This document shows positions 56,301-62,300 of a stretch of DNA of 64,000 nt, piece by piece (position 1 is the first letter of the stretch; each line of letters begins with the position of its first letter). Source of the DNA: a phage; sequence record PZ674595.1. One strand, written 5' to 3'. Made by a program: the position numbers.

Positions 56301-59300
56301 GGGAAAAGGATCTGTTTATGGAAAATGTTCGACTTAAGTCAGGTATAGCAGGTCTGATACACCTCGGTATTCGATATGCGAATGTCGAAGTCATGAAAAT
56401 AGCTGGAGATGTCCAGCTTTCTACTCCCTGTACTGACAGCATCATAAACAGTATTGCATCAGGCGTTTTCACCAAAGAGGGTCAGCATTATGAGAACAGT
56501 AGAAGTTCGCGCTGAAGATGTAACCCCAGGTGATGTGGTCATAACATCTAAAGGCAAACGATGTGCGGTTAAATCTTTCTGGATGGAAGGTGACAAAGTG
56601 ACTCTGTTCGGTACGGATGGTTCCGAAACGGATTATGACTACGACGAATTGCTTGTTGTTGAGAGAGCTGCCTAATGACCACCTTAACCAAAGAACAGTT
56701 AATCTCCCATGAACGCGAAAGCGTTAGTTATCTGGAAGACTTGAAAGGACGTGTTAGTAAAGAAGGTGCGGACTGCAAAGTTGTTATTGAGATGGTTGCA
56801 CGAGATCTAAAACTGGCACGAATTGCACTGGCCTCGCTTGAGGCAAAACCAATAGGTGCATTCCACATTGCAGAACAGCAAGTTGACGGCACAAGTGACT
56901 ACCTCAAGGATGGAGAATGGCCTATTGATAATGGGACAATTGAAGTATACGCCGCCCCTCCAGTGCCAGTAGTACCGGAAGAAAAACCAATGCCTAACGC
57001 TCTAAGCATGCTTGAAAGAGAGATCACACAACTGATTGGTGATGCGCAGGAAGCCACTGTTACTGGCTATGAGTTAATCGCTGAAGCTTGGCGTTTGATG
57101 GATGGACAAGACCCTAAAACCAGCGATTGGCATAGCAAGGCTTCGAAGTATTTAAATTCCAATATTGTAGAAAAAGTTGATGATGACCGTATTGAGGCTG
57201 TTAAGGCCGTTTTGCGTAGACTGGCTGGCAACCATCCGGATTTTCCGGATAGTTCCCAACAATCGCCCAAGAAAAGCGTAAAAACCACTCTGGAAAGAGG
57301 CTATCTTGAGGCCGCATTAAAGATTAAGCCGGGCCATACGCTAGGCGTCATTGATGCCATGTTGGTTCATGAAATGGCGAAGGCTTTATTGCCGCTGGTG
57401 GCTGATAAAATTCCGAATAAGGCCGATATCTGATCACCATGCTAAAATCCCCTCAATTCACAGAGGGGATTTTTGTATATGTTGCATAGAGTTTTATGGA
57501 AAAGCGTTATTGTCGGCGCGATACTGGCTATATCTGGGTGTGCAATGGTGCAATACAACGACGGTGAAAAGGTAAGCATACAGTCAGATGGTTGGTATGG
57601 TCTGGATAGCCTGCAAAAAACCGCAGATAAAGCCTGTCAGCAATATGGGAAGTCTAAAGCAGTATATCAGCATAGCGCGAACGCTAACCCTAATCTTGCG
57701 CCCGGTTCGGGTGTTCAGAATACCATCTGGAAATGTGAGCCTTAAATATGAGCGACTGGAATATTGCAGCTAAAAGTCAGGAAGAACGGGATAAGGTTAA
57801 CGTTGATCTGGCTGCCAGCGGTGTGGCGTACAAAGAGCGATTGAACATACCTGTCATAGCTGAACAGGTAGCCCGCGAGCAACCAGAGAACCTGCGCACC
57901 TATTTCATGGAACGGTTACGGCACTACCGGCAGTTAAGCCTCCAGTTGCCAAAAGGGAGCCATCCGGTGTATCAGAACGAGGATGCACCAAGAAAATAAC
58001 GGCAAGATGGGGAAGACATTAAACATGCTTAACTATCACGACAACACGCGTTCTATGCAGACAATCCGCACCAATACAGCGGTGGTCGATAGCTTTCCTG
58101 TACATACTCAAGGCCGTGAAGATACCGTGGAAGTGCGACGCATGTTGTGTCGCCGGTCACCAGGCCACCAGCACTTCATCGTAACGTTTAAAAGCGATGT
58201 AGAGCGCGCCGAGAAAATCTCTAACTCCACATCTCTGGTTAGTCCGTTGGCGGAGGTTATTGTGCGCAACAATAAGGCGCGCTTTGTCCTTGAGGAGCAT
58301 CATTCTGATTTTAATGAAAAAATTAAGTCAAGCATTTTGCAATATATGAATGGCAAGTTCACGCCACCAATGTGATTAGCCCCCAGCGTGGCGCGCCTGC
58401 AAACCCCGCTTTCACAAACTATGCCTTTTCAATGTATACTGTATGAATAAACAGTATCATTGAGGTAAAACGCTATGGGCTTCCCTTCTCCTGCGGCGGA
58501 TTATGCAGAGAGCCGTATTTCTCTTGATCAGCAACTAATCAGACATCCTTCAGCGACCTACTTCATGCGGGCGGCAGACAGCCATCACCGTGAGGGAATA
58601 TTGCAAGGTGCTTTGCTGGTGGTTGATTCCTCACTTACCCCGGTTGATGGTTCTCTGCTTGTATGCGCTCTGGATGGGGAATATCGCGTAAAAAGATACC
58701 GGAAGTATCCACGTCAGCATCTGGAGGATTTAAGAACCGGTAAGAAGGAAGAATTGCCAAAGGATGACGATGGATGCACGGGCAGCAATGCCGTGTTTGG
58801 TGTGATCACTCACATTATCAACGACGCAAGAAGTGGCGAGTTTGATGATTGTCCCGTGATGTAGGAGAACTGATTAGGCGGTGCAATGCACCGCCTTTTT
58901 ATCACACTGCGCGGAATGCGATTTCGCCAGGTATTACTTCACCTTGCCAATACATTTGGGCAGCAACGCGATCTGCGAGGTCACGATAAATAGCCGTAAA
59001 TTCGCTATCTGGACGACTAATAACGGTTGGTGTTCCGTTATCCAGATCTTCACGAAGAGAGATATGAAGTGGCATTTGGCCTAACAACTGCGTGTTGTAT
59101 TTCTCGGCCAGTTTCTGTGCGCCACCGGTGCCAAAAATTGGCTCGTGATGACCGCAGTTACTGCAAATATGCACACTCATGTTTTCGACGATACCCAGTA
59201 CCGGCACTTCGACTTTTTCGAACATCACAATGCCTTTCTTCGCATCGATCAGCGCGATGTCTTGCGGCGTAGTTACCACAACCGCACCAGTTACAGGAAT

Positions 59301-62300
59301 GTTCTGCGCCAGCGTCAACTGAATATCACCAGTGCCCGGCGGCATATCGAGAACGAGATAGTCCAGATCAGGCCATAGAGTTTCCTGCAACATCTGCATC
59401 AGCGCCTTGCTGGCCATCGGTCCACGCCACACCATTGCATTGTCGTCGGTGACCAGATAACCAATAGAGTTGGTTGCCAGGCCATGAGACATGATAGGTG
59501 CCATGTGAGTACCGTCAGGTGAGGTTGGACGTTGGTTTTCCGCGCCCAGCATGGTTGGAATTGATGGACCATAGATATCGGCATCCAAAATACCAACTTT
59601 CGCACCTTCAGCAGCCAACGCCAGTGCCAGGTTTACCGCCGTGGAGGATTTACCCACGCCGCCCTTGCCTGAGCTGACGGCGATAATGTTCTTAACGCCA
59701 TTAATGCCTGGTTGGTTTTTGACGCGCTTAAGCGTGGCAATGTTGTACGACAGCTTCCAGTCAATAGCCTTTGCGCCAGTGATACGGAGCAGATCACCAC
59801 TACATTGCTCTTTCAGGTCTTCAAAAGGCTTATTCCACACGAAAGGCATGATTAGTTCGACATGCAGTGTGTCATCCATCAACGCAACATGGTGTAACGC
59901 TTTAAGCGTAGTCAGGTTGTGTTTCAGGGTTGGGTGCTGAAAATTAGCCAGCGTACCGGCTACCATTGCTCTCAGGGCATCCGGCGATTTGGACTCGCTC
60001 ATCCCGTCTCCTTTATTTTAATTTGCGCAATTGTCGCCTTGTAGTGTACTCCAGCTACGACATTTAATCATTTATGAGAAATGCTGTTATCACATGGCAG
60101 ACATAAGGCCATTTTGTTACTATCAAGCCCCTTTTCACTACAAAGAAGTAATGCCTACTATGACCCAAGTCGCGAAGAAAATTCTGGTGACGTGCGCGCT
60201 GCCGTACGCTAACGGCTCAATCCACCTCGGCCATATGCTGGAGCACATCCAGGCTGATGTCTGGGTTCGTTACCAGCGAATGCGCGGCCACGAGGTTAAT
60301 TTCATCTGTGCCGACGATGCCCACGGTACGCCGATCATGCTGAAAGCACAGCAGCTTGGTATCACACCGGAGCAGATGATTGGCGAAATGAGTCAGGAAC
60401 ACCAGACTGATTTCGCAGGCTTTAACATCAGCTATGACAACTATCACTCGACGCACAGCGAAGAGAACCGTCAGTTGTCTGAGCTTATCTATACTCGCCT
60501 GAAAGAGAACGGTTTTATTAAAAACCGCACTATCTCTCAGTTGTACGACCCGGAAAAAGGCATGTTCCTGCCGGATCGTTTTGTAAAAGGCACCTGCCCG
60601 AAATGTAAAGCGCCAGATCAATACGGCGATAACTGTGAAGTCTGCGGCGCAACATATAGCCCGACTGAATTGATCGAGCCGAAATCGGTGGTTTCTGGCG
60701 CTACCCCGGTAATGCGTGATTCCGAACACTTCTTCTTTGATCTGCCTTCTTTCAGCGAAATGTTGCAGGCATGGACCCGCAGCGGCGCGTTGCAGGAGCA
60801 GGTGGCGAACAAAATGCAGGAATGGTTTGAATCCGGCCTGCAACAGTGGGATATCTCCCGAGATGCGCCTTACTTCGGTTTTGAAATTCCGAACGCGCCG
60901 GGCAAATATTTCTACGTCTGGCTGGACGCGCCGATTGGCTACATGGGTTCCTTCAAGAATCTGTGCGACAAGCGCGGCGATACCACCAGCTTCGATGAAT
61001 ACTGGAAGAAAGACTCCACCGCCGAGCTGTACCACTTCATCGGTAAAGATATTGTTTACTTCCACAGCCTGTTCTGGCCTGCCATGCTGGAAGGCAGCAA
61101 CTTCCGCAAGCCGACCAACCTGTTTGTTCACGGCTATGTGACGGTGAACGGCGCGAAGATGTCCAAGTCTCGCGGCACCTTTGTTAAAGCCAGCACCTGG
61201 CTGAATCATTTTGACGCCGACAGCCTGCGTTACTACTACACTGCGAAACTCTCTTCGCGCATTGATGATATCGATCTCAACCTGGAGGATTTCGTTCAGC
61301 GCGTGAATGCCGATATCGTGAACAAAGTGGTTAACCTGGCCTCCCGTAATGCAGGCTTTATCAACAAGCGTTTTGACGGCGTGCTGGCAAGCGAACTGGC
61401 TGACCCGCAACTGTACAAAACCTTTACTGATGCCGCTGAAGTGATTGGCGAAGCATGGGAAAGCCGCGAATTTGGTAAAGCTATCCGTGAAATCATGGCA
61501 TTGGCTGACCTGGCTAACCGCTATGTCGATGAACAGGCTCCGTGGGTGGTGGCGAAGCAGGAAGGACGCGATGCCGATCTGCAGGCGATTTGCTCTATGG
61601 GCATTAACCTGTTCCGCGTGCTGATGACGTACCTGAAGCCGGTACTGCCGAAACTGACTGAACGTGCAGAAGCATTCCTGAATACAGAACTGACCTGGGA
61701 TGGTATCCAGCAACCGCTGCTGGGCCATAAAGTAAATCCGTTCAAGGCACTGTATAACCGCATCGATATGAAGCAGGTTGAAGCACTGGTGGAAGCATCC
61801 AAAGAAGAAGTGAAAGCCACAGCCGCACCGGTAACTGGCCCACTGGCTGACGACCCGATTCAGGAAACTATCACCTTTGACGACTTCGCCAAAGTTGACC
61901 TGCGCGTGGCGCTGATTGAAAACGCAGAGTTTGTAGAAGGTTCTGACAAACTGCTTCACCTGACGCTGGATCTCGGTGGTGAAAAGCGTAATGTCTTCTC
62001 AGGCATCCGTTCCGCTTATCCAGATCCACAGGCACTGATTGGTCGTCACACCATTATGGTGGCTAACCTGGCACCACGTAAAATGCGCTTCGGTATCTCT
62101 GAAGGCATGGTGATGGCTGCTGGCCCCGGCGGGAAAGATATCTTCCTGTTAAGCCCGGATGCTGGTGCTAAACCTGGCCACCAGGTTAAGTAATTAAACA
62201 ACCTCTCTTCGCAATGCCCGGCAACACGCCGGGCATTTTCATATAGACACAATCCCTTCTGATTTACACAGTACCTAAAACAATTTGTTTTCTGCCTTTT

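Follow-up and report, generated by a model that had tools for sequence, protein, structure and literature searches.

The subject of this analysis is a host-derived apbC-metG gene block carried by a phage-plasmid, in a window of 64,000 nucleotides (nt) from the phage sequence record PZ674595.1. The window is the reverse complement of sequence in pM-64-1161 (NZ_MT773673.1), a circular E. coli plasmid of 110,879 bp, with 99.6-100% identity over the parts compared, and gene positions were taken from a listing of open reading frames (ORFs) in the window and from the annotation of NZ_MT773673.1. As the original prediction had proposed, the ORF listing, the plasmid annotation and NCBIfam models place a divergent gene pair between a UmuD'-like gene and small genes. 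The first member, apbC (mrp), lies on the minus strand (58902..60002) and encodes an Fe-S cluster carrier ATPase of 366 amino acids (aa; NF008669), and the second, metG, lies on the plus strand (60160..62193) and encodes a class I methionyl-tRNA synthetase (MetRS) of 677 aa with a C-terminal tRNA-binding/dimerisation domain (NF001100). The two are separated by a divergent promoter/intergenic region, delimited by alignment to K-12 (60003..60159). The left neighbour, outside the host-derived block, is humD (58475..58864, plus strand), a P1/D6-type gene encoding a UmuD'-like S24 peptidase that passes the NCBIfam HumD equivalog model (220 bits vs a cut-off of 120) and shares 87-90% nt identity with humD of P1, P7 and D6. 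Between humD and the apbC stop codon, a terminator scan located an element-specific, terminator-like hairpin with a T-run on the plus strand (58876..58896; 9-bp stem with 7 GC pairs, followed by TTTTAT). On the right, metG is directly followed by a phage-plasmid-specific intrinsic terminator (62213..62237, plus strand) and then by small hypothetical genes. A backbone regulatory region at 62270..62345 (plus strand), in which two AAAACAAnTTGTTTT palindromes surround GAGATAATAA, is the predicted right edge of the insertion and the predicted driver of the next backbone gene.

The limits of the block coincide with those of its coding sequences. Homology to the K-12 chromosome spans only positions 58906-62194, bounded by the stop codons of apbC and metG, with 88.4% identity overall, and the chromosomal flanks (yehE and a DUF4132 gene) are not present around the block. 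To look for a donor, we collected 80 enterobacterial loci by a scan of genome contigs and searched them by BLAST with the flanks, the intergenic region and the ends of apbC; this set lies outside E. coli, Salmonella and the other Escherichia, K-12 being taken from the E. coli genome set and the Salmonella chromosomal reference from PLSDB entry CP148763.1 (a 500-kb "plasmid") and phage record OR850913.1 (5.3 kb). Both of these references look like fragments of the Salmonella chromosome, CP148763.1 carrying yeh fimbrial and yehR flanks and OR850913.1 being 98.8% identical to it; because of frameshifts, CP148763.1 was used at the nucleotide level only. The terminator at 62213-62237, a 10-bp GC-rich hairpin followed by UUUUCAU (-19.1 kcal/mol, z = -5.84), is common to E. 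marmotae and Salmonella phage-plasmids, whereas SSU5, the K-12 and Salmonella chromosomes and the 80 enterobacterial genomes sampled do not have it. A strong hairpin thus exists where a metG terminator had been proposed, but it is not the chromosomal one and is shared only with other phage-plasmids. The hairpin at 58876-58896 likewise has no counterpart next to apbC-metG in K-12, the Salmonella chromosome or the 80 sampled genomes.

The K-12 chromosomal mrp(apbC)-metG locus has the same gene pair in the same orientation, with the same motifs and similar protein lengths, and what the two loci share outside the coding sequences is a metG-proximal leader. Conservation with Escherichia is limited to about 47 nt beside metG (60113-60159, comprising the 5' leader and core promoter region), which are 93.6% identical to E. 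albertii and 89% to K-12, and the remaining intergenic sequence has diverged with insertions and deletions, so that the proposed shared intergenic region holds for this short segment only. Compared with the K-12 locus, the phage-plasmid block lacks the chromosomal flanks, has other terminators and a diverged distal intergenic region, and contains an apbC that is 82% identical at the nucleotide level, with a 3-codon deletion.

Of the two backbone motifs that had been expected on both sides of the block, AAAACAAnTTGTTTT does flank it, with three copies upstream (28466, 50430 and 51159) and two downstream (62277 and 62328), for a total of 5 matches vs 0.04 expected. In SSU5, which has no apbC-metG, the regulatory element of 62270-62345 recurs upstream of a DUF1380 gene. 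The other motif, AAAACACATG, has 9 matches (vs 0.31 expected) in window positions 1179-55789, all on the plus strand and all upstream of the block, the last at 55780. At least two of these copies (54557 and 55780) have as their 3' end the ATG with which a backbone gene starts, an arrangement that points to AAAACACATG as a conserved translation-initiation context for backbone genes.

Both proteins match their family models over essentially their whole length. MetRS scores 1018.8 bits against the NF001100 equivalog (cut-off 587; residues 4-677 of 677), and its C-terminal domain scores 161.6 bits against TIGR00399 metG_C_term (cut-off 116.65; residues 543-677); the HLGH motif at 22, KMSKS at 333 and the zinc-knuckle cysteines (Cys146/149/159/162) are positioned as in K-12. 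ApbC scores 759.3 bits against NF008669 (cut-off 348; residues 2-366) and retains an intact deviant Walker A/P-loop motif, GKGGVGKS (residue 112), and the CxxC motif as CSNC (residue 280). The original description of both proteins as close but not identical to their K-12 versions fits MetRS, which differs by 10 substitutions, all conservative (98.5% aa identity; 94.1% nt identity for metG), 7 of them common to the E. albertii chromosomal enzyme. It was too generous for ApbC, which has 94.8% aa and 82.3% nt identity and a 3-codon N-terminal deletion. A 580-aa antisense ORF inside metG (60217-61959, minus strand) was set aside as a by-product of metG codon structure.

Selection on both genes is strong. 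The pairwise ratio of nonsynonymous to synonymous divergence (dN/dS) is 0.01-0.04 for both; against K-12, synonymous divergence (dS) is about 1.6 for apbC, with a dN/dS of 0.017, and 0.29 for metG, with a dN/dS of 0.025. Across 7 phage-plasmid alleles, polymorphic codons are synonymous-only in 84 cases vs 2 amino-acid-changing in apbC, and in 218 cases vs 18 in metG. Furthermore, five of the seven alleles encode one and the same ApbC protein, although they diverge from each other by up to 3% at the nucleotide level, and since the apbC alleles form a clade confined to phage-plasmids, selection acts on ApbC while it is on the element. Both genes accordingly code for intact enzymes of the conventional type and are held under strong purifying selection, and the plasmid MetRS is expected to methionylate tRNA-Met, given its 98.5% identity to K-12 and a dN/dS of about 0.02. 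Among 60 sampled PLSDB rows we observed a single case, NZ_CP058309.1, in which the block is 99.5% identical but 4 nt shorter and metG is annotated only in the form of several hypothetical proteins, owing either to a frameshift in this copy or to a sequencing error.

The element that carries the block has the gene complement of both a plasmid and a siphovirus. The annotation of pM-64-1161 includes repA, dnaE, DNA ligase, a DnaB-like helicase, thymidylate synthase (thyA) and dihydrofolate reductase (folA), together with siphovirus structural genes (terminase, portal, major capsid, tape measure and tail). Its replicon is of the IncFIB(pHCM2) type, its backbone is of the SSU5/pHCM2 type, and its DUF4942 methylase has 92% aa identity to the SSU5 counterpart, with the same neighbours. 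The SSU5-type backbone, the kept gene order and the plasmid replicon place it in the SSU5 supergroup, as an E. coli phage-plasmid of the SSU5/pECOH89 type, and near-identical blocks and backbones have been deposited both as phage genomes (Cyrano and PhiR41_1) and as circular plasmids. The element also resembles the pECOH89, AnCo1-2, pHCM2 and SSU5 "phage-like plasmids" (PMC3999498, PMC5427194, PMC7969092) in backbone, size (~105-115 kb), replicon and gene order.

In BLASTN-type comparisons with chromosomes and phage-plasmids, the block matched the chromosome at the stop-to-stop identity given above and also matched 208 PLSDB plasmids, 191 from Escherichia and 6 from Shigella. At least 95% identity was found for 189 of the 208, whose source species are E. 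coli, S. sonnei, E. albertii, E. fergusonii and E. marmotae; nearly all are of ~105-115 kb and non-mobilizable. Two S. sonnei plasmids in PLSDB illustrate the range, with blocks 99.7% (NZ_CP034066.1) and 97.6% (LR213459.1) identical to that of the window. Four phage genomes contain the block as well (Cyrano, two records of CMS-2020a, and PhiR41_1, which lists MG1655 as host). The insertion site is identical in about 190 Escherichia/Shigella phage-plasmids and in Cyrano, CMS-2020a and PhiR41_1, in agreement with the original view that this is not simply a chromosome-phage junction.

The distribution of the backbone is much wider than that of the block. An SSU5-type dnaE backbone was found in 745 plasmids, including 277 from Klebsiella, 221 from Escherichia, 90 from Enterobacter, 63 from Yersinia, 49 from Salmonella and 8 from Shigella. 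The block is present in roughly 85% of the Escherichia/Shigella elements of this type, whereas the Klebsiella, Enterobacter and Yersinia backbones have almost no block matches, and SSU5 itself and the Klebsiella plasmid pJN2-26, unlike the window element, have no apbC-metG block at the syntenic site. Because of these contrasting distributions, the block is essentially a feature of the Escherichia/Shigella branch.

The plasmid copy of metG is always an additional one. In 5,426 complete E. coli genomes we identified 220 plasmid-borne metG copies, with 215 records at or above 95% identity to the window, and about 4% of these genomes carry the block. The 5,424 chromosomal metG copies all lie at 93.3-94.2% identity to the window and every genome retains its chromosomal copy, from which it follows that no chromosome took over the plasmid allele wholesale. 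The idea of an auxiliary MetRS as a stable part of the lineage is therefore correct, with the same site, strong purifying selection and an intact chromosomal copy always alongside. Its description as unusual is not, given the 4% of complete genomes and a published account of the phenomenon (PMC12452169 and bioRxiv 10.1101/2025.09.12.675607). The original prediction had also set a host-like insert against a conserved, diverged phage gene in related elements; the latter matches the data, because the block occupies one site, is under strong purifying selection and always stands beside a chromosomal copy, and the block is ultimately host-derived.

The two genes of the block have different histories. 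At 94.1% nt identity to K-12 and 93.1% to E. albertii, metG lies at about the E. coli-E. albertii distance (dS 0.34). The apbC gene, for which E. coli and E. albertii are 89% identical, stands at the same distance from Escherichia as its Citrobacter or Salmonella counterparts, and a sliding-window profile places the divergence breakpoint directly upstream of the metG start. Base composition follows the same division. The block as a whole has a GC content of 0.50-0.52 vs 0.45 for the backbone; GC content at third codon positions (GC3) is lowered in apbC (0.526 vs 0.620 in K-12), shifted toward the 45%-GC backbone, with no such shift in metG (0.611 vs 0.625). Phylogenetic trees unite the phage-plasmid apbC alleles in one tight, long-branched clade, as befits an old, ameliorated allele specific to the phage-plasmid lineage, whereas the phage-plasmid metG alleles interleave with K-12. 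Among themselves, the plasmid alleles differ by 3-7% in metG and by 0.2-4.7% in apbC.

Individual alleles preserve traces of exchange with the chromosome. The metG of S. sonnei LR213459 contains a 600-nt tract with 8 mismatches to K-12 vs 37 to the window allele, and outside this tract the relation is reversed, with 91 mismatches to K-12 vs 28 to the window allele (Fisher p = 8e-12). Similarly, pEA11_2 and PhiR41_1 differ at 2 of 1101 sites in apbC and at 84 of 2034 sites in metG, almost all of them in its 3' half (p = 5e-14). The Salmonella enterica plasmid CP053410.1, an unannotated, diverged SSU5-like element of 107.7 kb with a backbone 67-80% identical to the window, carries apbC-metG (11998-15447 of the extracted locus L086) at the same site as the window, followed by the phage-plasmid-specific terminator and operator region, and its block resembles the Salmonella chromosome (95% identity) far more than the window (83%). 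One old insertion followed by repeated gene conversion from resident chromosomal copies would be the simplest reading of these patterns, and conversion confined to the region of homology would explain why homology ends exactly at the stop codons.

We consider it likely, with a probability of roughly 0.8, that, in the Escherichia/Shigella branch of SSU5-supergroup phage-plasmids (pECOH89/pWPMR2-like), the block is an accessory module domesticated long ago. In the proposed course of events, an ancestral element would have gained an enterobacterial apbC-metG locus, and the insert, which lies directly upstream of a backbone promoter/operator, would have been cut back to the two stop codons and provided with its own terminators. 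Since then, apbC would have evolved as a phage-plasmid gene, with genus-level divergence and a drift of GC3 toward the backbone. Conversely, metG and its leader of about 50 nt would have been repeatedly overwritten, wholly or partly, by recombination with the resident chromosomal metG, and would therefore be Escherichia-like in Escherichia elements and Salmonella-like in the Salmonella element. Beside the chromosomal copy, the module would provide wild-type-like MetRS, and probably ApbC, in a second dose that depends on plasmid copy number, and the sequence supports an expressed, conventional MetRS and ApbC in this role of an extra dose. Following the literature, expression of the phage-plasmid metG may then generate a sub-population with raised antimicrobial survival, to the benefit of both host and element. 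A more specific proposal, in which one ancient insertion accounts for the block in Escherichia and in some Salmonella elements, with metG kept host-matched by recurrent recombination and apbC being a true phage-plasmid gene, is put forward tentatively, as somewhat less probable than its negation.

Several points weigh against the domesticated-module interpretation or parts of it. None of the 80 sampled enterobacterial loci provides an apbC donor, either by exceeding about 82% nt identity or by sharing the phage-plasmid terminator. The case for a single insertion with subsequent conversion draws on one shared right junction and one Salmonella element, and independent captures at an insertion hot spot would be an alternative. 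A consensus promoter scan singled out neither a metG nor an apbC promoter, its match count not exceeding that in shuffled sequence; our statements on promoters are consequently based on conservation. Expression and enzyme activity of the block are deduced from its sequence, and the low metG dN/dS is due in part to selection on alleles that were chromosomal before recombination brought them in. The strict retention of ApbC is not accounted for. Finally, the persistence phenotype concerns S. sonnei pWPMR2 rather than this E. coli plasmid, and is taken second-hand from the account in PMC12452169.

The extra MetRS, with ApbC, might instead serve mainly the lytic cycle, supporting methionine charging and translation initiation in late infection in the manner of phage tRNA genes. 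Further host-like genes for translation and nucleic-acid metabolism are indeed present on the element (four tRNAs, cspG with a cspA-type thermoregulator, dnaE, thyA and folA), the ribosome GTPase gene der lies beside apbC in some relatives, and the block is packaged in virion-derived genomes. Yet the block keeps a host-type promoter-proximal leader in a divergent, self-terminated unit, an arrangement suited to constitutive expression in the plasmid state; SSU5 itself, the Klebsiella and Yersinia elements and most Salmonella relatives manage without it; and the phenotype described in PMC12452169 belongs to the carried state. As the main function we regard a lytic role as rather unlikely, although it is compatible with the data and with a role in host persistence.

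The relatives with der bear on the locus in their own right. In three phage-plasmids (two from E. marmotae and one from E. coli), der, which encodes the essential ribosome-biogenesis GTPase EngA, replaces humD beside apbC, with about 91.7% identity to E. coli chromosomal der (positions 6271-7743 of locus L087, extracted from E. marmotae NZ_CP146383.1). A second translation gene of host origin has been captured here, at the variable position that humD occupies in the window.

That the plasmid MetRS buffers an attack on Met-tRNA charging, either by an AtaT-like GNAT toxin of the same element or by MetRS inhibitors, in analogy with the isoleucyl-tRNA synthetase (IleRS) MupA, seems to us very improbable. 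The idea derives from a DUF1778 antitoxin and GNAT toxin pair encoded by pM-64-1161 (locus L002, 35336-36134), whose toxin has as its best solved relatives the 6GTS/6AJM acetyltransferase chains (E = 1e-79), which we take to be AtaT, followed by KacT. AtaT acetylates aminoacyl-tRNAs, including Met-tRNAfMet. The pair lies outside the window, however, and more MetRS would leave acetylated Met-tRNA in place. A link between the AtaT-like toxin and the extra MetRS is pure speculation. With regard to inhibitors, the 10 substitutions from K-12 are few, conservative and mostly shared with the E. albertii chromosomal enzyme, which makes a resistant variant unlikely, and MetRS scores far below the MupA/MupB "exception" models (about 32 bits vs a cut-off of 1900). 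An altered-specificity enzyme finds no support on the same grounds.

The notion that the MetRS pairs with the element's own tRNAs was discarded, because the element has no tRNA-Met: ARAGORN found none in the window or in the rest of pM-64-1161, the whole plasmid having only tRNA-Asn, -Tyr, -Thr and -Ser, and Rfam tRNA matches fell only in the same cluster. A chimeric assembly, a chromosome junction or a very recent, functionless passenger captured from the current host chromosome, for which the GC content of the block above that of the backbone could be cited, has a negligible chance of being correct: about 200 complete plasmids from independent assemblies (hundreds of complete records) and 4 phage genomes share the block, its site and its junctions, both ORFs are intact with dN/dS of 0.01-0.04, and a fresh capture of the present host's locus is contradicted by 88% identity to the E. 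coli chromosome over the full length, by 5424 chromosomal metG copies that are at most 94.2% identical, by ends trimmed exactly to the stop codons and by an apbC composition shifted to the backbone.

Elsewhere in the window, several further features were observed. An insertion of ISEcp1 and blaCTX-M-64 in the backbone (window ~6000-8400, with coordinates mapped from the plasmid annotation) is visible in the composition profile, where GC drops to a trough of 0.33 and then rises to a peak of 0.55; ISEcp1-blaCTX-M insertions are frequent in the pECOH89/AnCo1-2/pHCM2/SSU5 family. The tRNA cluster (Asn-GTT, Tyr-GTA, Thr-TGT and Ser-TGA), which contains the sole tRNAs of the element, lies at 9476-10128. 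A cspG-like cold-shock gene with a full-length cspA thermoregulator 5' untranslated region (21679-22097, minus strand; Rfam RF01766, 185.7 bits) is a further host-type gene carried together with its own cis-regulatory RNA. Directly left of the block, a DNA polymerase III theta-like gene and a hypothetical gene (57748-58375), together with humD (58475-58864), form a P1/D6-like module within the SSU5-type backbone, with 87-90% nt identity to P1, P7, D6 and RCS47, which looks like an exchange between two phage-plasmid families. In Cyrano and other relatives, other genes lie directly upstream.

An extra metG on phage-plasmids is real, widespread, already published and routinely annotated in public records. 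According to the summary of their work in the Discussion of PMC12452169 (its ref. 35), Tam, De Silva, Barker et al. (medRxiv 10.1101/2024.10.27.24316207) associated multidrug resistance in S. sonnei with multiple, variable phage-plasmid metG copies, and found that phage-plasmid metG expression yields a sub-population predisposed to gain third-generation cephalosporin resistance. In a 2025 survey (bioRxiv 10.1101/2025.09.12.675607), pWPMR2 is assigned to Escherichia/Shigella SSU5 clades and is found also in E. coli CC131, CC23 and CC73. The window element, with an additional metG on an SSU5-type phage-plasmid beside the chromosomal copy, corresponds in these respects to pWPMR2 of S. sonnei (medRxiv 10.1101/2024.10.27.24316207, as cited in those papers). 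It differs in carrying ISEcp1-blaCTX-M-64 and in coming from E. coli, whereas pWPMR2-like elements are reported to be without antimicrobial resistance genes. In a literature search that reached Tam et al. through citing papers, we found no other description of phage-plasmid metG beyond the pWPMR2 work. Relative to the published summaries of that work, the present analysis adds the exact stop-to-stop domestication, the purifying selection on plasmid ApbC and the difference between apbC, which is old and ameliorated, and metG, which keeps recombining with chromosomal alleles.

Other mobile or viral aminoacyl-tRNA synthetases offer partial parallels. Like the plasmid MetRS, the MupA/MupB IleRS is a second aminoacyl-tRNA synthetase on a mobile element that affects fate under antibiotics, but MupA/MupB are highly divergent and inhibitor-insensitive, whereas the plasmid MetRS is 98.5% identical to the host enzyme; given this near-identity, any effect would be one of dosage and not of target replacement. 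Giant viruses and some large phages also encode aminoacyl-tRNA synthetases. There, as here, a charging enzyme of cellular origin resides in a virus genome, but metG is near-identical to that of the host, keeps recombining and is carried by a temperate phage-plasmid of ~110 kb.

A spare essential translation enzyme on an element that is both phage and plasmid would constitute a non-classical route to antibiotic survival, through dosage-driven tolerance or persistence and not through a resistance gene. The module has reportedly been linked epidemiologically to successful multidrug-resistant S. sonnei lineages, and since the same module is present on a CTX-M-64 extended-spectrum β-lactamase element of E. 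coli, tolerance and resistance determinants would travel together. Recombination between plasmid and chromosomal metG also bears on the movement of essential-gene alleles between species: if the proposal of a single ancient insertion with a recurrently converted metG is true, SSU5-type elements would form a permanent bridge by which recombination carries alleles of an essential aminoacyl-tRNA synthetase from one species to another, and the locus may be a small "translation-gene island" (metG, der in variants and perhaps a link to an AtaT-like toxin) that tunes growth arrest.

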